Below are positions 1 to 27,914 of a stretch of DNA of 64,000 nt, piece by piece. The first letter of the stretch is position 1; every line of letters starts with the position of its first letter. Made by a program: the position numbers and the translations under genes. Source of the stretch: Christensenellaceae bacterium (GTDB taxonomy: Bacteria > Bacillota > Clostridia > Christensenellales > Borkfalkiaceae); the NCBI GenBank assembly GCA_045639245.1, contig JAZUCS010000011.1:4380-68379 (forward strand). The letters are read 5' to 3'. Below the pieces are notes generated by a model. The model searched no databases and had not been told where the DNA came from. It saw only the letters and a list, made by a program, of their open reading frames with translations.

Positions 1-1
1 T

Positions 2-811
2 GCTGGTGCGCTTTTCTTGAGTTTTGGTTCGAGTTTTTATAAATATTCCTTCCTTTTAGGTGCATTATCTATAGGTCTTCTCGGCATTATTTGGTTTTGC
101 TTTTATTCTTCTTTAACCGTAAATAATAAGCGTGAAACGGTTCAACCTATTAAGAATGATGAGACTGATAAAACAAGCAAAAGTAGTGCGCCTTTAGGAT
201 TTAGCTTTTTATTCCTCTTTGCGTCACTTTGTCTTTTTGCTATACTCGTAAATTTTGTTAAGGATGGTGTTAGCACTTGGTTTCCAACCATCTTAAAGGA
301 AAGTTTTAATTTTAACGACAGTTTATCTGCATTGTTAACCTTTGTATTGCCAGTATTTGGTATTTTCGGTACAACGGTTTCAATGTGGCTGAACAAAAGA
401 ATTAAAGATTATATAGCAATTATAGGTGTTGTGTTTCTTGCAACGGCAGTGATTATAGGCGCAGTATTATTCTTGTTTACTCAAGCGAATGCAGTGTCGC
501 TAGTGAGTGCGTTGGTAGTAATTTGTTTTGGCTTAATCTCCTGCATAATATATAGCGCAAACAACATTATTACTTCAAGAGCGCCATTGTTTTTAAGAAA
601 TAAAATGAATGCGGGGCTAACTGCAGGGTTGCTTAATGGCTTTTGTTATTTAGGTAGTACGCTTGCTGCTTACCTAATAGGCTTAGTTGCCGATGCAAGT
701 GGATGGATATCCGTTTTCGTTCTATTGCTATCTGTCTGTGTTTTTGTTTTGGTTTACACAGCTATTTATTTATTAATTAATCTTTTTAGGCAAAAAAATT
801 CTAAAACATAA
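2..811 (+). CDS. MFS transporter, C-terminal part (5' end cut by window edge); resembles GlpT/UhpC-type organophosphate:phosphate antiporters
   Basis: The frame is open back to nt 2 (AGALFLSFGSS...), so the TTG at 17 is not the true start. Multiple hydrophobic helices flank a charged central loop (NNKRETVQPIKNDETDKTSK). FVKDGVSTWFPTILKESFNF resembles the GlpT/UhpC segment YGILDWSPTYLKE. Confidence 0.6.
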   Translation, partial: AGALFLSFGSSFYKYSFLLGALSIGLLGIIWFCFYSSLTVNNKRETVQPIKNDETDKTSKSSAPLGFSFLFLFASLCLFAILVNFVKDGVSTWFPTILKESFNFNDSLSALLTFVLPVFGIFGTTVSMWLNKRIKDYIAIIGVVFLATAVIIGAVLFLFTQANAVSLVSALVVICFGLISCIIYSANNIITSRAPLFLRNKMNAGLTAGLLNGFCYLGSTLAAYLIGLVADASGWISVFVLLLSVCVFVLVYTAIYLLINLFRQKNSKT

Positions 812-827
812 TGAGAAAAGGAGAGAT

Positions 828-3128
828 ATGAAGGGCTATTTTTGTGACGAGAAAAAAGAATATGTTATAAGGGATATGTATCCAGTAAGACCACTTTATA
901 ACTACTTGTGGTCAGAGCATACCGTTTCCACGCTTGACCATTTTGGTAACGGCTTTACCACAAGTGTTAGAGACGGTAAGTGGAGAAATATTGAAACGGG
1001 CACACGTAACTTCTATATTAAGGATAGGGTTAGTGGTGAATATTATTCTGCCAACAGAAATTACAAAAGAGAACCTTTTGATGTTTTTGAATGCCATGTT
1101 GGGCTAGGCTATCAGCTTATTGTTAGTCAGTATAAAGGTATAAGAACGGAAATTACATTTGTTATTCCAAACGATTTACGTGCTCTTATGACGGGGATTA
1201 AGGTTAAAAACGTTTCTAGTGAAAAGAAATCTATCGACCTATATACCACTACTGAGCCTGTTATTAATATGACGGCACATTATTCAGAAGGTGAGGCGTT
1301 TTTTTCTAAGGAAGCTAATGGTTTAATTTTCTCTCACGATGCGTTTGAATACGAGCTTCCGTATAAGCACGTTTACCTATCGAGTGCAAAAGAATTTTAC
1401 GGATACGACGTAACCAATTCTAGATTCAAAGGCATTTACGAAGGATATGAAAACCCAGTAGCATTATGTGAGGATAGACTTGCTTCAATAGATATTAACG
1501 CAGATAATAACCACGTTGGTGCATTCCAATTTAGGCTTGACCTTGAGGCTGGAGAAGAGTGGGAAAACGTTCTTCTTTGCGGGCTTGCAGAAACAACAAA
1601 TGAGGCGATAACTCATTGTAATTATTGCACGTTAGAAAACTTTGCTAAAGAACTTAAATTACAAGAAAATATTAATAACGAATATTTAGACGTGTTCGTT
1701 TTAGATTCTCCCGACAAAATACTTAACTCGCAGGTAAATGTTTGGCTTAAACGTCAGCTTGCTTTTGGAAAAACGTGGGGCAGACTTTGGGGCAAAGGGT
1801 TTAGAGACGTTATGCAGGATATAACTTCATTTGCACCCTTTGACGCTGAGCTTGCCAAGAAGAGAATACTCTATGCCTTAAAACACGTTTACGAAAACGG
1901 CAACCCTATAAGAATGTTCGAGCCTACTTATCTCTATCCCTATAATGACGGCGCAATTTGGGTTCCTTCGGCAATTCTTGCCTACCTTAACGAAACGGGC
2001 GACTTATCTATTTTGGACGAGCAGGTTCAATATTTACCTGGTTCAAGCCTCGATAATTCCGTTTATGACGACGGCTCCTTCTCTTATCCTAAGTATAAGG
2101 GTACGGAGTACACCGATTCAGTGTTTGAACACGTTAAGCGTTGTATGGATTATATTATTGGCTCAAGAGGTGAAAAAGGCTTGGTGTTGTTCCGTGGAGG
2201 AGATTGGAACGACAGTATTAATAGTGCGGGAAAACTCGGCAAGGGTGAAAGCGTTTGGCTTTCTATTGCAACCTATAAAGCACTTAAGGAATTTGAGGAG
2301 ATATTAACCCTTTATAAAAAGGAAGAACTTGTTCCATATTACGCAGAAAAGAGAGAAGAACTTAAAGGTTACATTCTTGAAAACGGAAAAGACGGTGACC
2401 ATTTCTTATACGGTTATAATGATTACGGCTTAAAAATTGGCTCTGATGAGAATGATGAAGCAAAGATTTTCTTGAATCCTCAAACCTGGGCAGTTCTTGC
2501 AGGACTTGTGGAAAAAGAAGAACTTGAAAAGATTATGGACGTTGTCGAAGAGAGGCTTGTATGTGATTTTGGTTACGTTCAGTGTGCGCCCTCTTACGTC
2601 AACCCCAATCCCAATATAGGCAGGGTAACGTATATGAAGCCGGGGCTTGTTGAAAACGGTTCTGTATATAATCACGGTGTTGCGTTTAAGCTCGTTGCCG
2701 ATTGTATACTTGGCAGAGGTGATACGGCGTATAATACTTATCTAAAAATTAGGTACGATAATCCTAAAAATGCGGATTCGGGTGTCGAGCCTTATGCTGT
2801 AACTAATATGTATATAGGTCCAGAAAATCCATATCGCAAAGGGTATGCTAGAAACAACTGGATAACGGGAACTGCCGGTTGGCTTTATAGGGGATTAACC
2901 GAGTACTTCTGTGGGATTGTTCCCACCTTTACAGGCTTAAAAATATTGCCGAACTTCCCAAAAGCGTGGAATAAGGTTAATATTAAAAGAAAGTATAGAA
3001 ATTCCGTATACGACGTTCATTTTGAAAGAGGGGAAGAAAACCTCGTTATCGTAGACGGTGAAAAAATAATAGGAGAGATATTGCCTTTCGGAAAGAGTGA
3101 ATATTCCGTTAAGGTAATCTACAAATAA
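828..3128 (+). CDS. GH94-like glycoside phosphorylase (cellobiose/chitobiose phosphorylase type)
   Basis: 766 aa with no signal peptide and a GGAG-type RBS. The N-terminus GYFCDEKKEYVIRDMYPVRPLYNYLW follows the G.F.D..REYVI....P.PW.NYL pattern of cellobiose/chitobiose phosphorylases. GGDWNDSIN matches the catalytic DWND motif. TGTAGWLYRGLTEYFCGI matches the conserved C-terminal barrel segment. Confidence 0.7.
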   Translation: MKGYFCDEKKEYVIRDMYPVRPLYNYLWSEHTVSTLDHFGNGFTTSVRDGKWRNIETGTRNFYIKDRVSGEYYSANRNYKREPFDVFECHVGLGYQLIVSQYKGIRTEITFVIPNDLRALMTGIKVKNVSSEKKSIDLYTTTEPVINMTAHYSEGEAFFSKEANGLIFSHDAFEYELPYKHVYLSSAKEFYGYDVTNSRFKGIYEGYENPVALCEDRLASIDINADNNHVGAFQFRLDLEAGEEWENVLLCGLAETTNEAITHCNYCTLENFAKELKLQENINNEYLDVFVLDSPDKILNSQVNVWLKRQLAFGKTWGRLWGKGFRDVMQDITSFAPFDAELAKKRILYALKHVYENGNPIRMFEPTYLYPYNDGAIWVPSAILAYLNETGDLSILDEQVQYLPGSSLDNSVYDDGSFSYPKYKGTEYTDSVFEHVKRCMDYIIGSRGEKGLVLFRGGDWNDSINSAGKLGKGESVWLSIATYKALKEFEEILTLYKKEELVPYYAEKREELKGYILENGKDGDHFLYGYNDYGLKIGSDENDEAKIFLNPQTWAVLAGLVEKEELEKIMDVVEERLVCDFGYVQCAPSYVNPNPNIGRVTYMKPGLVENGSVYNHGVAFKLVADCILGRGDTAYNTYLKIRYDNPKNADSGVEPYAVTNMYIGPENPYRKGYARNNWITGTAGWLYRGLTEYFCGIVPTFTGLKILPNFPKAWNKVNIKRKYRNSVYDVHFERGEENLVIVDGEKIIGEILPFGKSEYSVKVIYK

Positions 3129-3130
3129 TT

Positions 3131-3904
3131 ATGTGGAACGGTAAGAAAAAAGCAGTAACCTTTAGTATGGACGACTTTGTGCCACAGGATGTAAGGTTTA
3201 TTGAAATGCTCGATAAATATGGGCTAAAAGGTACTTTTAACGCAAATTCAGGTGCGATAGGCGTGGATGCTGAAAGAGTTGCTTTTATGCCTGGTGCAGT
3301 GGGTGACCCCATTATTGTAAATGGGAAAGAGTGTCATAAGGAAACTGTTGAAAAACCACACGTTAGAGTTAATGAAATTAACGATATTTATAAAAATCAC
3401 GAAATTGCAGCGCATACGCTAACACATAAGGTGTTAACTCGTTTAGACGATAGCACGGTAGTTTTGCAGGTTGAGGAAGATAGGCTAATTTTAGAAAGTC
3501 TGACCGGTAGAAAAATCGTTGGCTTAGCTTATCCTGGTGGTGGAAAAGGTCCTATTTTTGACGATAGAGTTGCAGAAATTCTAAGGACTAAAACAGGTAT
3601 AAAATACGCAAGAACGAACGGTCAATCATTTAATTTTGAGCTTCCTAAGGACTTGTATCAGTTAGAGATGACTATGCACTTTGCCGATTTTAATAAACTT
3701 ATGGAACTTGGTAAACAGTTCTTGGAAACGGAATTCGACCATCCTGTATGTTTTTCTATATGGGGACATACCTATGAAATGGACGATGCGTATACTCCTT
3801 GGGAAGAAGTGGAAGAGTTTTGTAAATTTATCTCGGGCAGAGAAGACGTGTTCTATGGAACAAACGAAGAAGTGTATTTAGACCCTGACCTTGGTTTGAA
3901 GTAG
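3131..3904 (+). CDS. Polysaccharide deacetylase, NodB/CE4-type
   Basis: 257 aa, no signal peptide. NodB-like motifs are present: TFSMDD (Asp pair), HTLTH (His ligands) and AYPGGG. Starts 3 nt after the upstream stop. Confidence 0.8.
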   Translation: MWNGKKKAVTFSMDDFVPQDVRFIEMLDKYGLKGTFNANSGAIGVDAERVAFMPGAVGDPIIVNGKECHKETVEKPHVRVNEINDIYKNHEIAAHTLTHKVLTRLDDSTVVLQVEEDRLILESLTGRKIVGLAYPGGGKGPIFDDRVAEILRTKTGIKYARTNGQSFNFELPKDLYQLEMTMHFADFNKLMELGKQFLETEFDHPVCFSIWGHTYEMDDAYTPWEEVEEFCKFISGREDVFYGTNEEVYLDPDLGLK

Positions 3905-3911: not shown

Positions 3912-4679
3912 ATGTGGAACGGAAAAAATAAAGCTATAACATTTAGTTTTGACGATGCAGTTGCCGAGGATAAGAGGCTTATAGAGATTTTAGATAAATA
4001 CGGCTTAAAAGCCACTTTTAATATAAATTCTGGTTTTTTAGGTGTTTACGGAGAAGGTAAATATCTCAAAAGAGGAGCGTCTGAAACGGAAGAAACAGTT
4101 GAGGTTAACGGTGAACTTTATCATTACGAAGTAAAGCCAAAAATTCGTATTAAGCCCTGCGAGGTAAAGGAAGTTTATAAAAATCACGAGGTTGCTTGCC
4201 ACACCATTAAACACTGGCCATTGACTCTTTTAGACGACGATACTATCGCCCTTCAAACTGAGGCTGATAGACAAATTATTGAAAAGCTTGTAGGAAAACC
4301 CGTTGTCGGTATGGCTTATCCCTGTGGTGGGGTAAATTGCGATGATAGGGTAGCAAAAGTTATTAAAGAAAGGACAGGAGTTAAATATGCTAGAAGTTTT
4401 GTTAAGACCTATTCTTTTGAATTTCCTAAAGACTTGTATCAGTTAGAAAGTACTGTTAGATTTACTGAAACTGATAGGATGTTTGAATTAGCAAAAGAGT
4501 TTCTAGAAAAATCGTTTGATTACCCCGCCGTTTTTTCCATTTGGGGGCACGGCTATGAGATGCAAGATGATACGCATAATTTTGAATGTTTTGAAAAATT
4601 CTGCGCCTTTATTGCACACAAAAACGATATTTTTTACGGAACAAATCGTGAAGTATATTTATATAACGAAAAACAATAG
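3912..4679 (+). CDS. Polysaccharide deacetylase, NodB/CE4-type (tandem paralogue)
   Basis: 255 aa. Shares the MWNGK.KA.TFS.DD start, HT..H, AYP.GG, PKDLYQLE and FSIWGH.YEM segments with the upstream gene. Confidence 0.8.
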   Translation: MWNGKNKAITFSFDDAVAEDKRLIEILDKYGLKATFNINSGFLGVYGEGKYLKRGASETEETVEVNGELYHYEVKPKIRIKPCEVKEVYKNHEVACHTIKHWPLTLLDDDTIALQTEADRQIIEKLVGKPVVGMAYPCGGVNCDDRVAKVIKERTGVKYARSFVKTYSFEFPKDLYQLESTVRFTETDRMFELAKEFLEKSFDYPAVFSIWGHGYEMQDDTHNFECFEKFCAFIAHKNDIFYGTNREVYLYNEKQ

Positions 4680-4698: not shown

Positions 4699-5781
4699 AT
4701 GAAAATTATATTTGGTTCAGACGTTTCAGTGCACGCTGGAAGTGAAAACGAAAAACTCTTTGCAGAAAGAAGAACGAAAGAGATTTTTAACGACGTATTA
4801 GACGTTGTTAAAGAGGCAGATGCTACCGTTGTTAATTTAGAGTGTGCAGTTACCGAGAGTGAAAACAGAATTGCAAAATGTGGTGGCAATATTAAAATGC
4901 CATACGGCACTTGTGAAGTGTTAAAAGAAGCCGGCATTGATTACGTTGGTATTTCTAATAATCACGTGTACGATTTTGGCAGAGAAGGTCTTTTAGACAC
5001 CATTAGAGAGTTGGAGAAGAACGGCATTAAGTACACGGGTATTGGAAAGGACGTTGAAGATGCTAGGAAGGATATGATTATAGAAAAAGACGGCAAAAAG
5101 GTTGCTATCATTGCCGTTTGCGAACACGAGTATTCTTATGCGTTAGAGGATAGAGAGGGGTGCCGTGAGTATGACCCATACGACACCAACGACGATATCG
5201 TTGAGGCGAAGAAGAATGCCGATTACGTTGTGGTTATGTATCACGGTGCAAAGGAGCATAGTCGTTTTCCTTCTCCCAGAATTATTAAAGCTTGCCGTTC
5301 AATGGTAAAGCACGGCGCAGACCTCGTTATGTGCCAACACACTCACTGTATTGGTTGCTATGAAGAGTTTATGGGTGGACATATTCTATACGGTCAGGGT
5401 AACTTTATCTTTTTAGAGCCACACAACACTTCGGATTTGTGGAACACTATGCTCTTAGTTAGGGCAGATTTCGGCGACAAATTGACTGTTGATTTTATTC
5501 CCGTAGCAACTTGCAATAATTATACTGGTGTTGAGCTTGCTAAAGGCGAAGAAAAGGAAAGAATATTAAATGAACTTTTCGAAAGAAGTAAAAAGCTTCA
5601 CGACGGTACTTGGAAAGAAGAGTGGGATAAGTTCTGCTGGTCAATGGGTTGGTATAGGTTTATTCCTGAAGAGCTTAAGGAAAGAACTGCCCACTACATG
5701 GATTGTGAAGCGCACCTTGACGTAATGAAGCATATATACAAAACGGCTCATCACACTAATGAAAGAGAAAATAGAGAGTAG
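4699..5781 (+). CDS. CapA/PGA_cap-family metallophosphoesterase-fold protein, cytoplasmic (copy 1)
   Basis: 360 aa. Family-typical pattern: FGSD.S, VVNLECA.TES, LK.AGI.YVGISNNHVYDFG, MYHGAKEH, CQHTHC. No N-terminal membrane anchor or signal peptide. Confidence 0.72.
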   Translation: MKIIFGSDVSVHAGSENEKLFAERRTKEIFNDVLDVVKEADATVVNLECAVTESENRIAKCGGNIKMPYGTCEVLKEAGIDYVGISNNHVYDFGREGLLDTIRELEKNGIKYTGIGKDVEDARKDMIIEKDGKKVAIIAVCEHEYSYALEDREGCREYDPYDTNDDIVEAKKNADYVVVMYHGAKEHSRFPSPRIIKACRSMVKHGADLVMCQHTHCIGCYEEFMGGHILYGQGNFIFLEPHNTSDLWNTMLLVRADFGDKLTVDFIPVATCNNYTGVELAKGEEKERILNELFERSKKLHDGTWKEEWDKFCWSMGWYRFIPEELKERTAHYMDCEAHLDVMKHIYKTAHHTNERENRE

Positions 5782-5830: not shown

Positions 5831-6883
5831 ATGTTTGACGTAAATGGATGCAAATGTCACGATTTAGTAACTGATAAAATCGTGCCTGAACTTAGTTTTG
5901 ATAAATCTAAGAACTTGGCTGAGCAAAGGAAAATATTAAGAAATAAGTTTGTCGAGCTTTCGGGTATAGATAAAATTAAAGAAAACGATTGCCCATTAGA
6001 ATACGAAATTATTGAAGAAGTTCAAGAGGACGGCTATAAACGTATAAAAATTCATTATCTTAGTGAAAAGGATATGGTTGTACCGTGTTATCTTCTCGTT
6101 CCTAACGGATTAAATGGTAAAGCACCCCTTTGTATCGTTTTGCAGGGTAAGACGAAAGGTTATAAGTATTCTGTAGGCTTAGGTGATGAATACGATTTAG
6201 AGGACGATTTTGAAAAGCCTGATTACTCTAAGGTGGACTATGCTATCCAAGCTGTTAAACAGGGCTATTGCGCCTTAGCTGTTGAGCAGAGGGCAATGGG
6301 CGAACTTTTCCCTTACGACACTAAGAGAAACTGGATGGGTAGAAACCGCTCGGGGTTTACCACGTTTTACGCTTTTACTTTAGGCAGAACCACTGTTGGT
6401 GAAAGGGTGTGGGATATGAGCAAGGCGATTGACGTTATGGAAAATTTCCCAATGGTCGATACCGATAAAGTTATTATTACTGGCAACCACGTTGGTGGCG
6501 TTACTGCTTATTATGCTGCAGTTTATGATGAAAGAATTAAAATCTCTGTTCCGTCCTCTGGATTTTGTTCCTATAGGTATAGTGTTTTGGATATTAGTAC
6601 TACATATTGTCAGACCATTCCAAGAGCATATTTGCATTTTGATATGCAAGATTTGGCACAGTTAATCGTTCCTAGAAATTTAGTGGTAATTAGTGACAAG
6701 AACGACGAAGAGTTTCCTTTTGATAAAGCTAAGGAAAGCTTTGATAAGGTGAAAGAAATTTATTCTTGTTATGGCGCCAGTGAAAATTGTGCTCAGGTTG
6801 TTAAGGAAACAGAGGACGCTTCTTGGGATAAGGAAGTTTCTTGGAAAGCAATTAATAATTGCGCTAAAAAACTTGGATGGTAA
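5831..6883 (+). CDS. Alpha/beta-hydrolase-fold protein, esterase-like but lacking the canonical Ser and His (possible pseudoenzyme)
   Basis: 350 aa paralogue of 6894..7937. At the nucleophile elbow it reads GNHVGG (His codon CAC at 6488-6490) where the paralogue has GNSGGG. At the C-terminal His position it reads EDASW where the paralogue has KGHYW. Confidence 0.65.
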   Translation: MFDVNGCKCHDLVTDKIVPELSFDKSKNLAEQRKILRNKFVELSGIDKIKENDCPLEYEIIEEVQEDGYKRIKIHYLSEKDMVVPCYLLVPNGLNGKAPLCIVLQGKTKGYKYSVGLGDEYDLEDDFEKPDYSKVDYAIQAVKQGYCALAVEQRAMGELFPYDTKRNWMGRNRSGFTTFYAFTLGRTTVGERVWDMSKAIDVMENFPMVDTDKVIITGNHVGGVTAYYAAVYDERIKISVPSSGFCSYRYSVLDISTTYCQTIPRAYLHFDMQDLAQLIVPRNLVVISDKNDEEFPFDKAKESFDKVKEIYSCYGASENCAQVVKETEDASWDKEVSWKAINNCAKKLGW

Positions 6884-6893: not shown

Positions 6894-7937
6894 ATGAAAT
6901 TAATAGTAAATCCCGATTTGTGCCACGATAATCTTGCAAAAAATGCAAAAAGGCTTTGTGCGTTTGACGAAAACGTGGACGTTTCTGTTCAAGGAAAAAA
7001 AGCTAGAGAGAGGTTGATGGAAATAACAGGCATTAAAGAAATTGAAAAAAATGCCTGTCCTCTTACCATTAATATAATAAGCGATGAAATGAAAGAGGAA
7101 TTTCGTCAAATTCAATTAACTTATGAAAGTGAAAATGGATGCGACGTGCCTTGTTACGTTTTAATTCCAAACACTAATAAAGATAAATATCCTGTTGCGA
7201 TAACTATGCAAGGTCATTCATCTGGTTTTCATAACTCGATAGGTGAGATTCGCCCTGGTGATGAGGATTATCACCCAAGAGGTGCTTTTGGTGTGCAAGC
7301 AGTAAGAAACGGTTTTATTTCTATTTGTATTGAAAATAGAGGTATGGGGTGCAGGTCGCCAAAGCTTGCAAAACGTCGTCGATATACTAAAGGGTGCGAA
7401 TATCCTGCAAAATCAGCATTAATGCTTGGCAGAACGCTAATCGGTGAAAGAATGTGGGACATCAGTAAAGCTATAGATATGATTTCAACTTTTGAAATAT
7501 TTAAGCAGTGTGATACCGATAAAATACTAATTACCGGTAACAGTGGTGGTGGCACGATATCCTACTACACTGCAGTTTATGATAGTAGAATAAAATTGAC
7601 GGCACCGAGCTGTGCTTTCTGTACCTACGATATGAGTATATTAAAGGTTGGACATTGTTCTTGCAATTATATTCCCTCAATGAGAACGTCCTTTGAAATG
7701 CAAGATTTGGCAACTGCAATAGCACCGAGAAATATAATAGTTATCGCTGGTGTTAACGATGATATATTTTTAATTGACGGAGTAAAAGAAGGGTTTGAAA
7801 CGATAGAAAAAATCTACAAAAAAGCAGGAGTGCCTGAGAGGTGTAGATTCGTTCAAACACCTAAAGGTCACTATTGGTGCGAAGATATAGTTTGGCCTGC
7901 AATAAAGGAAGAAACTGTTAAACTCGGATGGTTTTAA
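6894..7937 (+). CDS. Alpha/beta-hydrolase esterase (acetyl-esterase/dienelactone-hydrolase-like)
   Basis: Start moved to the ATG at 6894, which follows AAGGAGAGA. The listed 6771 start overlaps the upstream gene. Nucleophile elbow GNSGGG (Ser codon 7542-7544), acidic GVNDD and C-terminal KGHYW give a plausible Ser-Asp-His triad. No signal peptide. Confidence 0.7.
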   Translation: MKLIVNPDLCHDNLAKNAKRLCAFDENVDVSVQGKKARERLMEITGIKEIEKNACPLTINIISDEMKEEFRQIQLTYESENGCDVPCYVLIPNTNKDKYPVAITMQGHSSGFHNSIGEIRPGDEDYHPRGAFGVQAVRNGFISICIENRGMGCRSPKLAKRRRYTKGCEYPAKSALMLGRTLIGERMWDISKAIDMISTFEIFKQCDTDKILITGNSGGGTISYYTAVYDSRIKLTAPSCAFCTYDMSILKVGHCSCNYIPSMRTSFEMQDLATAIAPRNIIVIAGVNDDIFLIDGVKEGFETIEKIYKKAGVPERCRFVQTPKGHYWCEDIVWPAIKEETVKLGWF

Positions 7938-12376: not shown

Positions 12377-12532
12377 TAAAATGGTGTAAAACGTGCCGTT
12401 TAGCACAAACAGTGCTGTAATTTTGGTAATTGTTTTACATAGATTGGGCAAGTTAACTATAAAAATTAATAGCAAAAAGTAAAAAAACACATATATTGAA
12501 TAAATAAATACATGTACAAAATTGCGTTTTTT

Positions 12533-14686: not shown

Positions 14687-14718
14687 GTAATAAACTATTT
14701 TTAATGGTGGTTAAAATT

Positions 14719-15729: not shown

Positions 15730-15743
15730 AGGAGGGGATAAAA

Positions 15744-16778: not shown

Positions 16779-16932
16779 TAGAATTATTTGCAAATTTACT
16801 TACAACTTTTCTTGCTAGTTTTCGTATTTTTTTCGTAAAATTAGCAAGATTAGTGGCAAAATTTATGTAAAAACTAAAGCGATATATATACATTAATATA
16901 TACGTTTAAAAAAAATATAAAGGAGAAAAAAG

Positions 16933-20667: not shown

Positions 20668-20678
20668 GGAGGCGTATT

Positions 20679-22781
20679 ATGAAGAAACATTTAAAATCAA
20701 TTATTTGTATAATGATGGCTCTTTGCGTATCCCTTGGCGTTTTCGCTACGGGATGCGGCAAAGAAGAACTTTCTGACCCCAATGCTGATAGATTATTGAG
20801 ATACAGAACTTATCAGGGTACGCACGATTACACTTCTCCCGATTTTGAATCGGAAGATTACCTCGTTAAAGACGGCAAATCTGATTACGTTCTTGTAACT
20901 CCTATAGATGCAGACACCTATGAAAGAACTGCTAAAGACGAATTCTTAAATCTCTTTTTGAAGGCTACTGGCGTTTCTCTTTCAACCACTACTGATGATA
21001 ATCTTCCTGAGGGAACTAAGTTCATTTCTATTGGCGAAACTGCTCAGTGGGAAGGATTAAACGTTACTGATGAAGAACTTCAAAAGCTCACTGCTGACGG
21101 CTGTAGAATTGTTACTAAGGATAAAAACATTTATATCTACGGTGGCGATACTGGTTATTGGCAGAGAAGACAGGGTGTTATCTATTCTGTATACACCTTT
21201 ATGGAGATTTATTTCAACTTTGACTACTACTACAGAAACTGTATCTCTCTTGATACCGGTATAACCGAGCTCAAGCTTAAAGATTTCAACGTGTGGGATA
21301 TTCCTGATATTGATGGACGTCCTACCCACGGTTCTGACGAAAACCAAAATCTCAGCTACCTTAGATGGTACGAGGCTGCAGCTGGATTAACTATTGGCGA
21401 TATTTCTAACAGATTGTATCGTTCAAGAAGTGAGGACGCTGCTGTTGGTATGTCTTCTTTCACCACCTTTGGTGATTACAGTTCTTCAAGCGCGTTTATG
21501 CACAATACTTCTGAGCTCGTTAACCCCAAGTCTGAGGGTGTTGACGCTAAGCACTGGTTCTCTGACGCAGGCGACCAGCTTTGCTACACTGCTCACGGTG
21601 ATGAAGTAGCGTATAACAAACTCGTTGAATACATCTGTGAAAAGTTCGCTATGTCAATGAAATACTTTAACGTTAACGACTATCCAACTAGATGCTATCT
21701 CGGTCTTATGCAGGAGGATAACCTAGCGTTCTGTAACTGTGCTTCCTGTCTTGCATTTAACGATGCTAACAACGGCGCCGTTTCTGCAGGTATGGTTAGA
21801 TTGTGTAACGACGTTATCACTATGATTCGTGAATGGCAAGAAGACCCCAATAACGAATTAAATAAACCAGAATATTACAGAGAAAACCTTAAAATTGTAT
21901 TCTTTGTATATAACACTTCTGAAACTCCACCAGCTGAATGGAGTGAAGAGCAACAAAAATACGTTGCTACCAGTCCTGAGTGTGACCCCAACGAGTACGT
22001 TGTTGGTTGGCTTTGCCCACACTGGAGCTACAAGAATGATATCTATAACCCAACTAACGACCGTAAGAGACAAATGATGGATGCTTGGGGCGACCTTCTT
22101 GATGAAACCTTCTACTGGTTCTATTCTGCTAACTATCAGTATGACGCTTACTTCGTAGAAGCTACTAACATTCTTAATAGTAACGCATTCCAGTGGATGG
22201 CATCTATGGATAGCCAGCACTCATTTGATAACATCTCTGCAGGTGGTTCTGACCCCACGGCGTTCAGACAAGTTGAACTTTATCTCTGGCACAAACTTTC
22301 TTGGAATTCCAACTTAAACGCTCTTGAACTCAAGAATAAGTTCTTCAACGCTATGTACGACTGCGTTGCAGATGAAATGCTTGAAGTTCATCAAATGTAC
22401 GTTGACCACGCTAACCTTCTAGCGCTTCACAACGACTGGGGTGGAGGCTACAATAGACCTAAATTCTGGGTTTACAACGGCTTCTTAAAACCTGTTGCTG
22501 ATAAGTTTGAAGCAATGCTTGCTAAAGTTGACGCTACTTATGGCGAAACTGACCCAGCTTACGCTGAACTTATTAAATCAAGAGTTTGCGTAGAGTACAT
22601 TGCTCCTCTTTATAAGATTCTCTCACTTTACGGTACTTCTGCAACTAAGGCTCCCTTTACGGAGGCAGTTAGACAGCAATATAAGGCAACCTTGAGAAAT
22701 CTTGCTTCCAAATACTACCCTGAGGTTACCCTCAACAACGGCGAAGAAAACGTAATTGCTTTCGTTGACGGTATTGCATAA
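20679..22781 (+). CDS. Lipoprotein, possibly DUF4838-like (glycosidase-related fold), function unknown
   Basis: 700 aa. Lipobox VFATGCG. The segment KDKNIYIYGGDTGYWQRRQGVIYSVYTFMEIYFNFDYYY resembles the N-terminal signature I associate with DUF4838 proteins. Cys cluster FCNCASCLAF. Confidence 0.45.
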   Translation: MKKHLKSIICIMMALCVSLGVFATGCGKEELSDPNADRLLRYRTYQGTHDYTSPDFESEDYLVKDGKSDYVLVTPIDADTYERTAKDEFLNLFLKATGVSLSTTTDDNLPEGTKFISIGETAQWEGLNVTDEELQKLTADGCRIVTKDKNIYIYGGDTGYWQRRQGVIYSVYTFMEIYFNFDYYYRNCISLDTGITELKLKDFNVWDIPDIDGRPTHGSDENQNLSYLRWYEAAAGLTIGDISNRLYRSRSEDAAVGMSSFTTFGDYSSSSAFMHNTSELVNPKSEGVDAKHWFSDAGDQLCYTAHGDEVAYNKLVEYICEKFAMSMKYFNVNDYPTRCYLGLMQEDNLAFCNCASCLAFNDANNGAVSAGMVRLCNDVITMIREWQEDPNNELNKPEYYRENLKIVFFVYNTSETPPAEWSEEQQKYVATSPECDPNEYVVGWLCPHWSYKNDIYNPTNDRKRQMMDAWGDLLDETFYWFYSANYQYDAYFVEATNILNSNAFQWMASMDSQHSFDNISAGGSDPTAFRQVELYLWHKLSWNSNLNALELKNKFFNAMYDCVADEMLEVHQMYVDHANLLALHNDWGGGYNRPKFWVYNGFLKPVADKFEAMLAKVDATYGETDPAYAELIKSRVCVEYIAPLYKILSLYGTSATKAPFTEAVRQQYKATLRNLASKYYPEVTLNNGEENVIAFVDGIA

Positions 22782-22791
22782 GATTTATATA

Positions 22792-23520
22792 ATGAAAAAA
22801 GTTTTAACCCTATTATTAACATTAACAGTATTACTTCTTTCTTTCGGTTTCGCCTCTTGTGGCGAAACCGAAATGGAGGAGACTGCTGAACCATACGTAA
22901 TTGCAACTGTATTCCCACAAGAAGGGCGTAATGACTATACTGGCATTGTTCGTCAAGTTGGTACTATTGGTGGAAAGCCTTTAATTAAGGTGGAAACACC
23001 TAATCTTGACGGCTGGTACGTCACCTTTTCTAGTGATAATGAAAAAATGCTTACCGTTGATGAAGACGGATATTGTGATATAATCCGTGGAGGCACGGTT
23101 TACGTTACCGTTACTTATACCAATGGTGTGGATAAAGTTACGGATATAGTTTCTTGGTATAATCACCATTGGAATAGAGATATTGAATTATATTTCCGTG
23201 GTGAGGGCATGGACCCGCCAGGTGACTATATGAGGTCTAGTTGGGAGTTCTCTTTAGGTACGCCAGTTGCTTTAGAGCCTTTACTTGTTTTTCCCACTGG
23301 TGAATTTAGAGACGTTATAATTCGTTCAGTTGACATAGTGGATGAGTCTGTACTTACCTATGAAAACGGTGTGTTAACTCCTGTAAGTGCAGGAACTACC
23401 GATATTGAAATCGATTGTTCTTGGAGAGGTTACACTAGCTCTTCTTGGACAGGAAGTAGCTCCCATGGTGGAACAGGTAGTGCTGACTTGCATCGTAAAA
23501 TTACTGTTACTGTTTCCTAA
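22792..23520 (+). CDS. Small lipoprotein with Big_2-like Ig domains
   Basis: Start moved to 22792 (MKKVLTLLLTLTVLLLSFGFASCGE, lipobox), because the listed 22756 start overlaps the upstream gene. Contains VTVTYTNG and TPVSAGTTDIEI, which are Big_2-like strands. Confidence 0.55.
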   Translation: MKKVLTLLLTLTVLLLSFGFASCGETEMEETAEPYVIATVFPQEGRNDYTGIVRQVGTIGGKPLIKVETPNLDGWYVTFSSDNEKMLTVDEDGYCDIIRGGTVYVTVTYTNGVDKVTDIVSWYNHHWNRDIELYFRGEGMDPPGDYMRSSWEFSLGTPVALEPLLVFPTGEFRDVIIRSVDIVDESVLTYENGVLTPVSAGTTDIEIDCSWRGYTSSSWTGSSSHGGTGSADLHRKITVTVS

Positions 23521-23557
23521 TTATTTATAAAAGGTTAAAATTTATAGGAGAAAATTT

Positions 23558-25786
23558 ATGAAAAAGCATATAACTTTAATTTTAGCTATTATTGCTACGT
23601 TATGTTTAAGTATGTTTTTTGTTGCTTGTGGGGAACCTGAGAATAACAATCCAACCCCCGAAGCTCCCTCTGTTACCGTTGACATTAATAAAAGCAACGT
23701 TAATATGATTCTTGGTACAACTGAGAACCTTACGGCTATGTACACGACTAAAGATGGATATACTCTTTCTTGGTCGTCTAGCGACAGCTCGATTGTTACC
23801 GTTAACGGTGGTAAGCTTGAGGCAATGAAACAGGGTAACGTTACCGTTACTGCAACTTATTCTAACGGTACTGAAACGGTTAGCGATACTTGTAACGTTG
23901 CAGTTACTTTAGGTAACTTTGCTCCCGTTTTCTGTATTGAAAACAACACTTTAGATTCTTGGAACGTAACCAAGGGCGAATCTATTGAAATCGTTCCTTA
24001 CGTTTATTTCAACGGTATGAAATTCTATGACGTAACAGTTACTCTTGAATCTTCTAATAACGACATTGTTTCTTTTGAAAACAACACAATTACTGCTCTT
24101 GCTAAGGGTAGTGCTAACATTCAGTTAGCAGCTTCTTGGAGAGGTATTGAGTTTAACGGCAAAAACGCTATGGGTATTGACCTTAAATATAACGTTTTTG
24201 GCAACTACGAAATGAGCTCTAACGGTGAAACCCTTAAGGATATTCATATCTACACTAGAGAGTCATGGGGTGGAAAAACTTACGCTACCACTGCTGCTTT
24301 TGACCCTGTTGTTAGAGAAAATAACGAGGTTTCTACTAACCCTGTAGAAATTGTTATTGCAAACGAAACAATTATTAAGTATAGTAACGAAGGTTATCTC
24401 TACACTACTGGTGAAGGTTTTGGTGAAACAACTATAACCCTTAACTGGACTTCTTCTGATGGTGACCCTTATACCAAAATTATCAATGCAAAGGTTGAGA
24501 GACCCGTTGATTATTTTGCTGAAACTATTGAATATTTCTCTGCTATCGACGGTGTTGCTCTTTATGACGCTGATAAAGATGGTGCGCACTTAGAAACTAC
24601 TCTTGCTGATGTTCTTTACGGTGCAGGTACCGATGCTGTTATGGTTGACGGTTATCAAAACTACTATAACTATGCAAACAAGAGTGATATCGTTGCTGAC
24701 GCACTCACCGTTACTGACAACGTAGTTAACGGTGTATTCTCTCACGCTTCTGGTTTCCAGGACGTTGAACTTACCTTGGGTACCAATACTGAAGTTTGGG
24801 TTGTAAATATCAAATCAGCTTCTAAAGTATTTGCTCAGGATAATATTGATGAATTCGTTCCTACCTTTACTACCACTGTAAACGAAGGTAAGGGTTATAC
24901 CTTATATTTAGACGGTGGCGTTATCGACAAATATCTCTATTATACCACTAATAGCCGTCGTCAAGGTTACTACACCTTGTGTGAAGATATAACTGGTATT
25001 GAAACTAATGGTAAAAACACTGGTGCAATGTTTGCAGGTAACTTTGATGGAAGAGGTCACGTAATTTCTGATATTACTTTTACTGGTTATGATGATGCTA
25101 AAACTGAAACACCTGATAAGAGTTATTCCTATTGGGGTGGTTTGTTCGGAACGTTAAAGACTATTGCAGATGCAGGTATCACCAATCAGGGCGCAATTAT
25201 TCAAAACGTAGCGTTTACTGACGTTACCTTTGCTGCACCAAACTGTTCGCTTCTTGGTTATCAGAGTAACGGTACTTCTAGTGGTTTGCCTACTATTAGA
25301 AACGTGTTCGCTCAGTTTAACGAGCAGGCTGAATATCAGAATTGGTGCTCTGCATTATTCTATATGTCTCAGTATCTCAAGATGGAAAACGTAATTGTTG
25401 ATTATCCAGTTGGTGATAACTATGTTCTTCCTACGGAGTTTTCTTATCCTACCCCTACGGAAAAGGACCCTACAGCTACTACATCTAATAACTATGGCTC
25501 TTTAATTGCTAGAATGGACTATACTAAATACACTAAGAGACAAATTTTATCCAATGTTTACGTTGTTTCTAAAGTTCCTCTAGGCTTCACTAATAATGGT
25601 ACTGATGAAGAGTTATGGAAACAGGATGCTTCTAACGTTACTGCTGAAGGTTTCTTACAAGTTCCCGGCACATATCGTTACAACACCTATGCTGATATGA
25701 AAGCTGCTAATAACGATTATGCTGGTTTCACAACTGATTACTGGACTATCGTTGACGGACTTCCCGTATTTAATGCGCTCGCATAA
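23558..25786 (+). CDS. Lipoprotein with Big_2-like domains and a GLUG-motif-like beta-helical C-terminal half
   Basis: 742 aa. Lipobox FFVACGE. N-terminal Big_2-like repeats (GNVTVTATYSNG, ALAKGSANIQL). The C-terminal FAGNFDGRGHVISDITF ... GGLFGTL ... IQNVAFTDV follows the F.G.FDG.G..I..L ... GLFG ... I.N pattern. Confidence 0.5.
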   Translation: MKKHITLILAIIATLCLSMFFVACGEPENNNPTPEAPSVTVDINKSNVNMILGTTENLTAMYTTKDGYTLSWSSSDSSIVTVNGGKLEAMKQGNVTVTATYSNGTETVSDTCNVAVTLGNFAPVFCIENNTLDSWNVTKGESIEIVPYVYFNGMKFYDVTVTLESSNNDIVSFENNTITALAKGSANIQLAASWRGIEFNGKNAMGIDLKYNVFGNYEMSSNGETLKDIHIYTRESWGGKTYATTAAFDPVVRENNEVSTNPVEIVIANETIIKYSNEGYLYTTGEGFGETTITLNWTSSDGDPYTKIINAKVERPVDYFAETIEYFSAIDGVALYDADKDGAHLETTLADVLYGAGTDAVMVDGYQNYYNYANKSDIVADALTVTDNVVNGVFSHASGFQDVELTLGTNTEVWVVNIKSASKVFAQDNIDEFVPTFTTTVNEGKGYTLYLDGGVIDKYLYYTTNSRRQGYYTLCEDITGIETNGKNTGAMFAGNFDGRGHVISDITFTGYDDAKTETPDKSYSYWGGLFGTLKTIADAGITNQGAIIQNVAFTDVTFAAPNCSLLGYQSNGTSSGLPTIRNVFAQFNEQAEYQNWCSALFYMSQYLKMENVIVDYPVGDNYVLPTEFSYPTPTEKDPTATTSNNYGSLIARMDYTKYTKRQILSNVYVVSKVPLGFTNNGTDEELWKQDASNVTAEGFLQVPGTYRYNTYADMKAANNDYAGFTTDYWTIVDGLPVFNALA

Positions 25787-25816: not shown

Positions 25817-25848
25817 CCTCACGGAGATTATCTCCGTGAGGTTTATAC
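25817..25848 (+). terminator. Rho-independent terminator after the 742-aa lipoprotein gene
   Basis: CCTCACGGAGA (25817-25827) pairs with TCTCCGTGAGG (25831-25841), followed by TTTAT. Confidence 0.6.
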
Positions 25849-25905
25849 TAAACAAGACTTTTATTTAAGTAGATTTTTTTTGAGAATGTAAAAAGGAGAA
25901 TTATT

Positions 25906-26379
25906 ATGGTTTACTGTACGGCTGGTGAAACTGTACTTTCAGTATGGTGGGACCCAAGAAGTGAATTTAAGAAAGGATATAAATATAAAATTACCATTGA
26001 TGGTAAAAACGTTGTTTATACCACTCACGTTTATTATGACTTTAAGTCATTATTAGAGGGCACTACTCACGATTTCATTATTCAGCTAGTTGATGAAAAC
26101 AAAAACGTTGTAGGCAAAACAGAAACTGCTACCTATAAAACACTTCCTTACAAGGAAAAGGTTGACTTAACGCTTCCTCCTTATAACGCCATAGGTGATG
26201 GTGTTACCGATAACACTGCTATTTTACAAAAGGCTATTGATGATTGTAGGGCAGACCAATATTTGTTCCTTCCTTTCGGCATTTATATTTCCGATAGACT
26301 CGTTATGAGTGGCGATAAGAAAATAGTGTTCGGTGCAGGCGCAGTTATTTGCACCAAAGAGAGGGCTAAAACTTTATGA
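25906..26379 (+). CDS. Truncated paralogue of the N-terminus of the downstream GH28 enzyme (FN3-like domain plus first beta-helix coils)
   Basis: 157 aa that aligns with residues 1-150 of 26376..27914 (W-W, Y.FK.L, PPYNA.GDGVT.NT.A.QKAIDDC) and then stops. Has a strong RBS AAAGGAGAA. Its TGA overlaps the downstream ATG (ATGA). Confidence 0.5.
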   Translation: MVYCTAGETVLSVWWDPRSEFKKGYKYKITIDGKNVVYTTHVYYDFKSLLEGTTHDFIIQLVDENKNVVGKTETATYKTLPYKEKVDLTLPPYNAIGDGVTDNTAILQKAIDDCRADQYLFLPFGIYISDRLVMSGDKKIVFGAGAVICTKERAKTL

Positions 26380-27914
26380 TTAATTCTGTTTTATTTGATA
26401 ACCAAATTAAAATTTGGTGGAATTACACAAGGCTTGAAGATGGATACTCTTATCGCGTTATAAAAGATGGTGAAGAGTTTAATACTATTCAAACTCACTA
26501 TGCTTTTAAGGACTTAGAGGCTGAAAAGACTTATTCTTTTGAGGTTTATCTTGTTGGTGATGACGGAAACGTTATAAAAGAGGTTGGCAAAGCCGAATTT
26601 ACCACCTTAAAGTCTAAAAACACTATCGACGTAACTAAACCCCCGTATAATGCTGTTGGTGACGGGGTAACCTTAAATACCAAGGCTATTCAAAAGGCTA
26701 TCGACGATTGCACTGAAAACGATAAGGTTTATTTCCCCGACGGAACTTACCTTACCGGTGGACTTATGCTTCACTCAGACGTTGAACTTCGTTTAAGCGA
26801 AGGTGCAGTTATTCAAGGTACCGATAATCCTGAAGATTATCTTCCCAAAATCGTTACTCGTTTTGAGGGGTGGAAGGAAGTTGGCTATCGTTCGTTATTA
26901 AACGCAGGCGAAATTGACCCCGACAATAAGGGCTATGTTTGCAAAAATATAGTAATTTACGGTGGTAAAATTGTTGGTGGTGGCGAAAAGCTCCGTGTAA
27001 ATGAGATTAAAGCTGAAATTCCTAATGTTTTGAAAGAACACGGTATGGAGGGTGTTGTTAACCCCGGTGGATATTACACGAGGCACGTTCCTGGTAGAAG
27101 AAGGGGCAGACTTATGCAGTTTGGTAACACTCAAAATATTCTCTTAGCAGACTGTTTTATGGGTAATGGACCCGCATGGAATATACACCCTGTTTATTGT
27201 GATAACGTAACTGTATGTAACTGTACAGTGTTCTCACACGCAATTTCCAATGGTGATGGTATTAACCCCGACTCTACTACTAATGTGCTTATATTTGGTA
27301 TTCACTTTGACACGGGTGACGATTTTGTTGCTATAAAGTCGGGTAGAAACAGAGAAGGTTATGAGGTTGGAAGACCAAGTAAAAATATTACCATTTTCGA
27401 TTGTACTTCTACCGACGGTCATGGTATTGCACTCGGTAGTGAAATGTCTGGTGGTATTGATGGGGTTACGGCTTGGAACTGCGAATTCTTAAAGAGTAGC
27501 GTTGGTATTTCTCTTAAAACTAACCGTGCACGTGGTGGTTACATTAAAAACGCAAGTTTCTATAACTTTAAGATTCGTAGGCTTTCCCTTGCAGACTACA
27601 AGGGCACTAACGACGATGGTGATGTAGCTCCTTATCCTCCTGTTGTTGAAAATATTCACTTAGAAGATATTACTATTGCAGGTATTTGTCGTTCAACTGC
27701 TGACGCTGATTCAGGAAACAGATATTCTGCAGGTGATGCTGTTAGATTCCGTGGGGGGCAAGAGTATAGACCTAAAAATATCACTCTTAAAAATATTACT
27801 CTTCTCAACAGGGCAATTCTTCCATTCCAAAACTTTATTGCAAAGGATATAGATAATCTTTCTATTGAAAACATAATTTGTCTTGGTGAAGACGGGGATA
27901 TTAGTCCATTCTAA
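26376..27914 (+). CDS. GH28 exo-polygalacturonase-type glycosidase with N-terminal FN3-like domain, cytoplasmic
   Basis: 512 aa, no signal peptide. Canonical GH28 blocks in order: NGDGINPDS, TGDDFVAIKSG, DGHGIALGSEMSGG, ISLKTNRARGG. Confidence 0.8.
   Translation: MINSVLFDNQIKIWWNYTRLEDGYSYRVIKDGEEFNTIQTHYAFKDLEAEKTYSFEVYLVGDDGNVIKEVGKAEFTTLKSKNTIDVTKPPYNAVGDGVTLNTKAIQKAIDDCTENDKVYFPDGTYLTGGLMLHSDVELRLSEGAVIQGTDNPEDYLPKIVTRFEGWKEVGYRSLLNAGEIDPDNKGYVCKNIVIYGGKIVGGGEKLRVNEIKAEIPNVLKEHGMEGVVNPGGYYTRHVPGRRRGRLMQFGNTQNILLADCFMGNGPAWNIHPVYCDNVTVCNCTVFSHAISNGDGINPDSTTNVLIFGIHFDTGDDFVAIKSGRNREGYEVGRPSKNITIFDCTSTDGHGIALGSEMSGGIDGVTAWNCEFLKSSVGISLKTNRARGGYIKNASFYNFKIRRLSLADYKGTNDDGDVAPYPPVVENIHLEDITIAGICRSTADADSGNRYSAGDAVRFRGGQEYRPKNITLKNITLLNRAILPFQNFIAKDIDNLSIENIICLGEDGDISPF

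Follow-up and report, generated by a model that had tools for sequence, protein, structure and literature searches.

Polysaccharide utilization loci of Gram-positive gut bacteria (gpPULs) have been defined among the gut Firmicutes for Roseburia and Eubacterium rectale (PMC5320581). Here, we analyzed a 64,000-nucleotide stretch of DNA from a Christensenellaceae bacterium (GenBank assembly GCA_045639245.1, contig JAZUCS010000011.1, positions 4,380 to 68,379 of the forward strand; hereafter the window). A scan for open reading frames (ORFs) recovered 20 consecutive ORFs between positions 17 and 27914, all on the + strand, as had been stated in an earlier annotation of the same DNA (hereafter the original prediction). 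As in a gpPUL, carbohydrate-active enzymes (CAZymes; here GH94, two GH28, CE4 and DUF4838 proteins) are co-located with a substrate-binding protein (SBP), two permeases and an AraC-family regulator. On balance, and with modest confidence, we read this locus as a mosaic Gram-positive polysaccharide utilization locus (PUL) of a gut Christensenellaceae bacterium, built around a cassette of genes that is found throughout the lineage.

The window locus resembles gpPULs in that it joins a regulator, an ATP-binding cassette (ABC) importer with a lipoprotein SBP, and CAZymes, and in that breakdown appears to be split between the cell surface and the cytoplasm. A further likeness is that no ATPase gene was found by Pfam among the 20 ORFs. 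Unlike in gpPULs, however, the surface enzyme is a DUF4838 lipoprotein rather than a cell-wall-anchored enzyme of the GH13, GH10 or GH26 type; the cassette adds a ~1,100-aa protein with multiple immunoglobulin (Ig)-like domains and Big_2 lipoproteins, both without family assignment, and throughout an order it is found combined with differing sets of enzymes. The Sus-like (starch utilization system) PULs of Bacteroidota offer a second comparison. In both, a genome carries many paralogous loci that combine a constant core for uptake and surface functions with variable enzymes, and lipoprotein-anchored surface proteins and multi-Ig proteins occur; the Bacteroides surface protein SGBP-B is among the Foldseek matches of the 1244-aa multi-Ig protein of the window. 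Nevertheless, neither SusC nor SusD families were found by Pfam among the 20 proteins, so that the locus does not belong to the Sus-like PULs: transport in the window relies on an ABC importer (plus a major facilitator superfamily (MFS) transporter) in a single-membrane cell, and the components are not homologous. We regard the cassette as a possible functional analogue of Sus.

The cassette occupies positions 12587-25786 of the window and consists of the SBP, the two permeases, a multi-Ig protein of 1,000-1,250 aa, the DUF4838 lipoprotein, and one or two Big_2 lipoproteins. Throughout this work, families were assigned by Pfam searches with gathering thresholds and named further by NCBIfam models, and the localization of window proteins was judged from hydropathy together with a lipobox check. 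Contigs carrying relatives of the 1244-aa protein gave a set of close relatives (L001-L005), and cassette loci at large were collected by a profile scan of one genome per species. The profile of the 1244-aa protein found 43 loci, almost all in Christensenellaceae, Christensenellales or unclassified Clostridia metagenome-assembled genomes (MAGs), which had been recovered from the guts of humans, sheep, deer and buffalo; homologues of the 1244-aa protein in cassette loci numbered 41. Several genomes carry more than one copy of the cassette (five in HGM11445, three in MAG897). Wherever the contig was long enough, the order SBP, permease, permease, 1244-like protein, DUF4838 protein, 742-like lipoprotein was kept, in about 35 further loci, even though the proteins of distant cassettes are 22-32% identical to those of the window. 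The lipobox cysteines are invariant or nearly so in the SBP, DUF4838 and 742-like families.

The genes around the cassette behave differently. Among the 43 loci, the cytoplasmic enzymes of the window do not recur outside L001-L008, save for an SGNH esterase in L044; GH94, CE4, PGA_cap, the alpha/beta-hydrolases and GH28 are confined to the closest relatives and vary among them. Pfam searches of 84 same-strand neighbors in the distant loci instead returned GH2 in 10 and GH3 in seven (for example in L046 and L027, where GH2 and GH3 genes follow the cassette), as well as GH95, GH29, GH4, a GH20-type C-terminal domain, GFO/IDH/MocA oxidoreductases, ADP-ribosylglycohydrolases and one PfkB kinase. 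Since gene order is kept while the neighbors differ, the exported trio and the ABC importer make up a reusable core, and the cytoplasmic enzymes a locus-specific part. The original prediction had treated the 20 genes as one glycan-utilization locus. This holds in so far as a regulator, an ABC importer and CAZymes lie together, and fails for the idea of a single unit, because synteny shows a conserved cassette beside variable cytoplasmic modules; likewise, of the gene set as it occurs in other genomes, the cassette recurs in order and the other enzymes vary among relatives. In a non-exhaustive literature search we found no description of the cassette, or of DUF4838 in Christensenellaceae.

The closest relatives illustrate how the modules come and go. 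In L001 (GCA_052829045.1), gene order matches that of the window from the hydrolases through to GH28b, the second GH28 gene, and the right flank is the same (PALP 96%, FAD 94% identical); the retrieved left flank ends in the first hydrolase gene. L003 carries two PGA_cap genes, two hydrolases, the SGNH esterase, the cassette, a gene for a 157-aa protein and GH28, and in its cassette a single 1646-aa protein replaces the pair of 242- and 742-aa lipoproteins. L004 has PGA_cap, the SGNH esterase, GH28a, the cassette, the 157-aa gene and GH28b, and L005 the SGNH esterase, the AraC gene and the cassette, seen up to the contig end. The most reduced version is L002, from a Christensenellaceae MAG, which holds an AP_endonuc_2 protein, one PGA_cap gene, the AraC gene and the cassette only; GH94, CE4, the hydrolases, the SGNH esterase and GH28 are absent from this locus, although its chromosomal position is unchanged, with the spoIIA/sigF/spoVAC genes on one side and a gene for a pyridoxal-phosphate (PLP) enzyme (PALP) on the other. 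Between spoVA and the gene for the PLP enzyme there is thus what looks like a variable glycan island. In two relatives, the locus lies directly downstream of spoIIAA, spoIIAB, sigF and spoVAC (L002 1-2933, L005 454-927), and the window has spoIIIAA at 38625-39476, about 11 kb downstream of the locus. Sporulation genes beside the locus mean that the host carries such genes.

A comparison of the window with L001 further separated the parts. Identity is 94-96% for the housekeeping proteins of the flanks and 84-91% for the cytoplasmic enzymes of the locus, in contrast to 59% for the SBP, 58% for the 1244-aa protein, 59% for the 742-aa protein, 65% for the 242-aa protein and 66% for GH28b, with DUF4838 at 80%. 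The same pattern was seen with L004, the surface and binding proteins being 52-65% identical across L001 and L004. This indicates that the exposed binding components probably diverge, or are exchanged, faster than the rest, which would fit shifting ligand specificity or pressure on surface proteins.

To our knowledge, only two DUF4838 enzymes have been characterized. DUF4838 (PF16126) is the catalytic domain of GH163, founded on BT1035 of B. thetaiotaomicron, a surface endo-beta-N-acetylglucosaminidase acting on complex N-glycans, and of GH185, founded on Sp_0475 of S. pneumoniae, a 6-sulfo-GlcNAcase with the catalytic residues D309, Q174, H227 and Y436, for which GH115 was reported as the top structural neighbor (PMC10570127). 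The 700-aa lipoprotein of the window (20679..22781, +), a candidate cell-surface glycoside hydrolase, scored 42.8 bits against PF16126 (threshold 26.6) and covered profile positions 19-318 of 325, and the domain was precomputed on about 118 of its 120 listed relatives. An AlphaFold2 model built on a 117-sequence alignment had a pLDDT of 92.7 and a pTM of 0.90. Foldseek aligned this model with a GH115 alpha-glucuronidase (6e-11), a GH84 O-GlcNAcase, GH138, a GH67 alpha-glucuronidase and GH20 hexosaminidases, all at probability 1.00, and all matches were glycoside hydrolases of the same TIM-barrel architecture. The original prediction had seen no recognizable extracellular catalyst in the locus; a lipoprotein with PF16126 above threshold and a glycoside-hydrolase fold overturns that point.

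Upon inspection of the 117-sequence alignment, D347 was found to be invariant, within an E-D-N triplet just after the predicted barrel strand 340-342; Y411 is also invariant, and H275 and N276 are nearly so. The alignment also has four invariant cysteines (C302, C352, C354 and C357), arranged as C...CxCxxC beside D347, which suggests a structural metal site; we take the arrangement to resemble the structural zinc site of GH42 beta-galactosidases. The 700-aa protein is thus similar to GH163 and GH185 in having PF16126, a TIM barrel nearest to GH115 and a conserved Asp at a strand end of the barrel, and, like BT1035 of GH163, which is endo-acting, it is predicted to lie at the surface. It differs from both in its modest Pfam score of 42.8 bits and in belonging to a subfamily of about 120 clusters that has the four invariant cysteines. 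Judged from the model, a uronidase-type activity would be as compatible with its structural neighbors as a hexosaminidase activity. The DUF4838 lipoproteins of this subfamily possibly have new specificities, perhaps endo-acting or uronidase-type, and may carry a Cys4 metal site.

The other exported proteins of the cassette are large and hard to place. The 1244-aa protein (16933..20667, +) is a secreted all-beta protein with several Ig-like domains and a signal peptide that has no lipobox. It had no Pfam or PDB match; members of its family match Ig-like families only in Pfam, and the family profile matched, in PDB, the Ig region of an adhesin, at the C-terminus, and otherwise Ig-like domains only. 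Its AlphaFold2 model, built on seven sequences, is all-beta and poor (pLDDT 61, pTM 0.37), and Foldseek on this low-confidence model returned proteins made of serial Ig or beta-sandwich domains, such as S-layer proteins and SGBP-B of Bacteroides, with low TM-scores. The family has two conserved central modules, marked by the motifs TDxYDPS and FxGFTTGEV. A word-indexed search of 5.8 billion proteins yielded only seven relatives, and the same search with a 41-sequence profile returned these seven members and unrelated Ig-domain proteins. The enzyme mix of the locus had been called unusual, and this combination of enzymes is indeed rare. We regard the 1244-aa protein as a candidate surface glycan-binding or scaffold protein.

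The 742-aa lipoprotein (23558..25786, +) combines Big_2 Ig-like domains with a C-terminal module that carries the motif FxGxFDGxGHxI...GLFG. All 29 members of its family have Big_2, two have Peptidase_M26_N and one has Pectate_lyase_5 (a pectate-lyase-like adhesive domain), and the family profile gave only Ig-like domain matches in PDB. The possibility that the C-terminal module is a GH28 or pectate-lyase relative was rejected (hhalign probability 0.6%). We consider this lipoprotein a candidate glycan-binding protein. Its homologues come after the DUF4838 gene in about 30 loci. In some loci the same slot holds larger relatives of 1,646 to 2,132 aa (L003 15872-20812, L018 15629-22027, L039 5315-10474), and several loci have two tandem copies at this position. 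This component of the cassette therefore appears to be modular and expandable. Between the 700- and 742-aa genes lies that of a 242-aa lipoprotein (22792..23520, +; lipobox FASC), which has orthologues in L001, L002 and L004. It is paralogous to the Ig-like N-terminal part of the 742-aa protein, with which it shares 25% identity over 215 aa (E 2e-14). Domains common to the 1244- and 742-aa families were also considered and rejected, the signal peptide alone being shared.

Upstream of the exported trio is the importer. The 648-aa lipoprotein (12587..14533, +) had no Pfam match when searched alone. A profile of its family (32 sequences), however, matched sugar SBPs in PDB, first 9h0n (E 5e-18) and then chitin-oligosaccharide and xylo-oligosaccharide binding proteins, and the lipoprotein is therefore the binding protein of an ABC importer, in the form of an enlarged and divergent family-1 SBP. 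The lipobox cysteine, Cys24, is invariant. Two permeases, both BPD_transp_1 in Pfam and both conserved in the cassette, follow at 14704..15729 and 15744..16778 (+). The AraC-family regulator with a cupin sensor domain (11525..12376, +; Pfam HTH_18, HTH_AraC and AraC_binding) is encoded directly upstream of the SBP gene in the window and in L001-L005.

Most junctions in the locus measure -4 to 49 bp. Four spacers are longer: 210 bp between the AraC and SBP genes, 170 bp between the SBP and first permease genes, 154 bp between the second permease and 1244-aa genes, and 119 bp between the 742- and 157-aa genes. GC skew is above zero across the locus. A strong hairpin (11 pairs, 7 GC), likely a terminator, follows the 742-aa gene at 25817-25841, and a weak hairpin lies 3' of the AraC gene at 12401-12417. 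The spacer between the SBP and permease genes (14534-14703) contains two clear inverted repeats, AGACTGTTATA...TATAACAGTCT and ATTCCGTA...TACGGAAT, which may form an internal attenuator that raises expression of the SBP over that of the permeases. The likely transcription units run from the MFS and GH94 genes through AraC, from the SBP through the 742-aa gene, and over the 157-aa gene and GH28b. A strong bidirectional hairpin terminator at 27923-27954 marks the right end of the locus, and this boundary is firm; beyond 27954 come housekeeping genes, namely those for a PLP enzyme, a flavin adenine dinucleotide (FAD) protein, pyrroline-5-carboxylate (P5C) reductase, RNase H, cytidylate kinase, LytB-S1 and SpoIIIAA. 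LytB-S1 is a 711-aa ORF (36400-38535) in which a LytB (IspH) domain is fused to S1 RNA-binding domains. On the left, the locus may extend beyond the window, because its first ORF encodes the C-terminal part of an MFS transporter and is truncated by the start of the window. The family calls of the original prediction (GH94, two CE4, two PGA_cap, two alpha/beta-hydrolases, SGNH, two GH28, AraC and two permeases) were all reproduced by Pfam. Its calls of five exported proteins and a group of cytoplasmic enzymes agree with our hydropathy and lipobox check, in which the 648-, 700-, 242- and 742-aa proteins have a lipobox and the predicted cytoplasmic enzymes have no hydrophobic N-terminus.

Next to the cassette lies a set of enzymes that are predicted to be cytoplasmic. 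The most widespread among close relatives is the SGNH esterase with a GxDLY N-terminal domain (9098..10162, +; Pfam Lipase_GDSL_3 7.6e-33, GxDLY 5.6e-20), which is present in L001, L003, L004, L005 and L044, keeps its GSS and DGCHP (DxxH) motifs, and has an uncharacterized protein, 4lhs, as its nearest PDB entry. Of two alpha/beta-hydrolases of the Abhydrolase_7 family, the second (6894..7937, +; Pfam, including a partial match of the glucuronoyl-esterase type) has its GNSGGG elbow intact in the window, L001 and L003. Its start, previously placed at 6771, was corrected to 6894 (347 aa), as in the L001 orthologue, to which it is 88% identical. The first hydrolase (5831..6883, +; Pfam Abhydrolase_7/GCE_fung) lacks the nucleophile serine, with GNHVGG in the window and GNGAGG in the L003 orthologue (L003 1586-2647), and may be an inactive or non-canonical paralogue. 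The nucleophile motif of CE15 is GCSRxG; the elbows GNSGGG and GNHVGG differ from it, and the GCE_fung match spans profile positions 79-147 only, so that neither hydrolase is placed in CE15. Two PGA_cap proteins (CapA-like, metallophosphoesterase fold) are encoded at 4699..5781 (Pfam PGA_cap 7.4e-54) and 7977..9098 (7.8e-54), both on the + strand, with homologues in L001-L004; the sole named relative in NCBIfam is the lasso-peptide epimerase MslH, with a weak score.

Both GH28 enzymes pass the Pfam GH28 threshold. GH28a (433 aa; 10177..11478, +; Pfam 5.1e-15) has the motifs DGISPD and TGDD, with ANA where the H-G motif is expected, and its best NCBIfam model is the BT4146-type rhamnogalacturonidase (2.7e-75, 254 bits against a cut-off of 500). 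GH28b (512 aa; 26376..27914, +; Pfam 4.6e-20), in which an FN3 domain precedes GH28, has NGDGINPD, TGDD and GHG, and its best models are the BT4155-type alpha-D-galacturonidase (4.2e-49, 168 bits against a cut-off of 800) and PglA (below cut-off). The 157-aa protein encoded just upstream (25906..26379, +) consists of an FN3-like domain and the first beta-helix turns, and is a partial paralogue of GH28b (36% identical to residues 1-146). A recent pseudogene fragment was considered for this ORF and rejected, given the same length in three other genomes and only 36% identity to its neighbor: the orthologues in L001, L003 and L004 are exactly 157 aa long and 58-75% identical, and in every case the stop of the gene overlaps the start of the full-length GH28 gene. 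What had been labeled a truncated copy is therefore conserved rather than debris, and appears to be a maintained small protein. Collectively, the families of these enzymes suggest cytoplasmic de-esterification of imported oligosaccharides and exo-removal of alpha-linked uronic acid from them.

These enzymes raise the possibility that the substrate is pectic, in the form of acetylated or methyl-esterified oligogalacturonide or rhamnogalacturonan fragments that would be de-esterified by the SGNH esterase and the hydrolases and trimmed by exo-acting GH28, with the DUF4838 protein as a surface enzyme of the alpha-uronidase type. The best-scoring named models for the GH28 pair, BT4146 and BT4155, are enzymes of the B. 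thetaiotaomicron rhamnogalacturonan-I (RG-I) PUL; in addition, an FN3-GH28 architecture is present, the structural neighbors of DUF4838 include GH138, a rhamnogalacturonan-II enzyme, and the alpha-glucuronidase families GH115 and GH67, and the hydrolases include a partial match of the glucuronoyl-esterase type. We nevertheless consider a dedicated pectic pathway rather unlikely. Neither polysaccharide lyases (PL), CE8 or CE12, nor GH105 or GH88 were found by Pfam among the 20 proteins, so that the locus is no canonical pectin locus, as the original prediction had maintained from the lack of PL, CE8 and an unsaturated-uronide hydrolase. The lack of lyases, CE8, CE12 and GH105 sets the locus apart from the RG-I PUL, and the GH28 enzymes of the window differ from those of that PUL in being predicted cytoplasmic. 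Moreover, the GH28 scores fall far short of the equivalog cut-offs, pectin breakdown offers no role for GH94, CE4 or PGA_cap, the cassette occurs without any GH28 in L002 and L005, and the characterized DUF4838 enzymes are hexosaminidases.

The left end of the locus is of a different kind. It begins with the truncated MFS transporter (17..811, +; Pfam MFS_1 6e-15; eight transmembrane-like segments), followed by a predicted cytoplasmic GH94 glycoside phosphorylase of 766 aa (828..3128, +; Pfam Glyco_hydro_94 2.6e-78, supersandwich 1.4e-27). Both of its domains score above the Pfam thresholds (97 bits for PF06165 and 264 bits for PF17167), as in the known GH94 phosphorylases acting on cellobiose, chitobiose, cellobionic acid, laminaribiose and cellodextrin. 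The best PDB matches were cellobiose phosphorylase (3.6e-74), chitobiose phosphorylase (2.8e-70) and the putative beta-glycan phosphorylase 4zle (2.8e-70). Like the cellobiose and chitobiose phosphorylases, with which it aligns over its full length, the window enzyme keeps the DWND motif; in a 9-sequence alignment of its subfamily, the GDWND motif with D462 is invariant. D462 is presumably the catalytic Asp, which in cellobiose and chitobiose phosphorylase structures lies in the W-N-D motif. Unlike these characterized enzymes, which score ~1e-70 (250 bits), the closest uncharacterized representative scores 904 bits; the closest 50%-identity cluster representatives are 40-53% identical to the window enzyme, which by these comparisons belongs to a small uncharacterized subfamily. 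The E-values for cellobiose and chitobiose phosphorylase are so nearly equal that they single out neither disaccharide.

GH94 is followed by two tandem CE4 (NodB-type) deacetylases without signal peptides, one of 257 aa (3131..3904, +; Pfam Polysacc_deac_1 3.8e-12; motifs TFSMDD, HTLTH and WGH) and its paralogue of 255 aa (3912..4679, +; 3.3e-15; TFSFDD, HTIKH and WGH). CE4 enzymes are marked by the NodB motifs Asp-Asp and His-x-x-x-His and by a catalytic His, and both proteins carry them all, as TFS(M/F)DD, HT(L/I)(T/K)H and WGH. The CE4 protein gave no PDB match at E ≤ 0.01. A tandem CE4 pair 30-35% identical to that of the window lies about 8 kb from a GH94 relative in L053.

A genome scan with the single window GH94 sequence found no relatives. 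The closest GH94 relatives, on metagenome contigs, are 51-54% identical and are accompanied by an MFS transporter that is 42% identical to the window fragment (L049, L050, L070, L081 and L090) and also by a different DUF4838 protein; members of the subfamily lie near MFS, DUF4838, GH109-like, PIG-L or CE4 genes. In L049 (1031-16982), for example, the order is DUF4838 (649 aa), a GFO/IDH/MocA oxidoreductase, MFS, GH63-like, GH109-like, trehalase-like, GH94 and a PIG-L de-N-acetylase, with a SASA-type acetylesterase several ORFs past PIG-L. Because GH94 relatives pair with their own MFS transporter, we read MFS-GH94-CE4-CE4 as an add-on that is most likely separate and has a transporter of its own. 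Its beta-linked disaccharide probably needs deacetylation, which lends some support, for this module only, to the original idea of a hexosamine. The proposed substrate as a whole, an N- and O-acetylated glycan of uronic acid and hexosamine, is plausible, and it may conflate two modules, each served by its own transporter.

A stronger form of that idea takes all 20 genes as one pathway of a scavenger that has no enzyme outside the cell and takes up fragments set free by other organisms; heavily N- and O-acetylated oligosaccharides of uronic acid and hexosamine would be imported and dismantled purely inside the cell. The genes are indeed co-directional and tightly spaced, the deacetylases, esterases, GH28 and GH94 enzymes are all predicted cytoplasmic, the characterized relatives of DUF4838 act on N-acetylhexosamine linkages, and GH94 relatives adjoin genes of the N-deacetylase type. 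We find this account improbable: the locus has an exported, strictly conserved lipoprotein with the fold of a glycoside hydrolase, L002 keeps the cassette at the same site without GH94, CE4, hydrolases or GH28, in other genomes the partner of GH94 is an MFS transporter, and both GH28 enzymes are best matched by models of pectic galacturonidases rather than hexosaminuronidases. Finally, that the exported proteins form an envelope or adhesion module (S-layer-like proteins or adhesins with an enzyme remodeling the cell's own wall glycan) that merely lies beside a sugar transporter seems very improbable to us: although the Foldseek matches of the 1244-aa protein include S-layer proteins, Ig-like and adhesin-like domains are present, and exported proteins are 58-59% identical between close relatives against 84-91% for cytoplasmic ones, the S-layer match comes from a low-confidence model, the AraC gene is adjacent in close relatives, and in about 35 loci the trio is linked, with gene order unchanged, to the SBP and permeases; this recurrence, with several paralogous copies per genome and varied GH neighbors, fits substrate-specific uptake loci.

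Taking together the observed gene content, families, localization signals and DUF4838 fold with the conservation or variability of the parts, we return to a mosaic Gram-positive PUL built around the cassette. In the following scheme all activities are inferred, as are the substrate and what the multi-Ig, Big_2 and PGA_cap proteins do. A polymer would be held at the cell surface by the multi-Ig and Big_2 proteins and cut there by the DUF4838 enzyme; the SBP and permeases would import the fragments, and the AraC regulator would control expression. In the cytoplasm, the SGNH esterase, the one intact alpha/beta-hydrolase and perhaps the CE4 pair would remove acyl groups, and the two GH28 enzymes would remove alpha-linked uronic acid. 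The substrate would then be esterified oligosaccharides of the galacturonic-acid type, from pectic or microbial acidic glycans. Independently, the MFS-GH94-CE4-CE4 block would import and phosphorolyze a beta-linked disaccharide, possibly one that contains hexosamine.

Several observations weigh against the mosaic PUL and its scheme. One PGA_cap gene is kept even in the reduced locus L002, yet the scheme gives it no role, and both GH28 scores are far below the NCBIfam equivalog cut-offs. The CE4 pair may remove either N-acetyl or O-acetyl groups, and the separation of GH94 and CE4 as a module is drawn from relatives that have diverged by more than 45%. At the surface, the catalytic role of D347 is deduced from its position and invariance, the binding role of the 1244-aa protein is a guess given its poor model, and a catalytic domain may be hidden in that protein or in the C-terminal module of the 742-aa lipoprotein. 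As for expression, the operon structure is deduced from spacing and consensus hairpins; promoter-like sites in the locus are no commoner than in shuffled sequence, and no operator-like motif common to the intergenic regions was found. A shared AraC operator was considered for these regions and rejected, since only ribosome-binding sites recur.

Few gut bacteria are linked to host leanness and health as often as the Christensenellaceae, most of which are uncultured. How they acquire carbohydrates is poorly known, and the cassette, if it is what we suppose, would be a genomic marker for predicting their glycan niches. We tentatively suggest, at somewhat less than even confidence, that it is an undescribed Christensenellales-wide counterpart of Sus, in which a constant core for capture, cleavage and import has been duplicated repeatedly within genomes and coupled to varied enzymes, and that it encompasses a large radiation of DUF4838 surface glycoside hydrolases and new glycan-binding families. 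The about 120 clusters of DUF4838 lipoproteins provide a set to screen for new glycosidase activities, the two unassigned families of large surface proteins are candidates for glycan-binding tests, and the window locus itself offers a concrete list of enzymes for esterified acidic glycans. To us, the most interesting aspect, and one not visible from the window alone, is that the cassette recurs throughout a little-studied order of gut bacteria.

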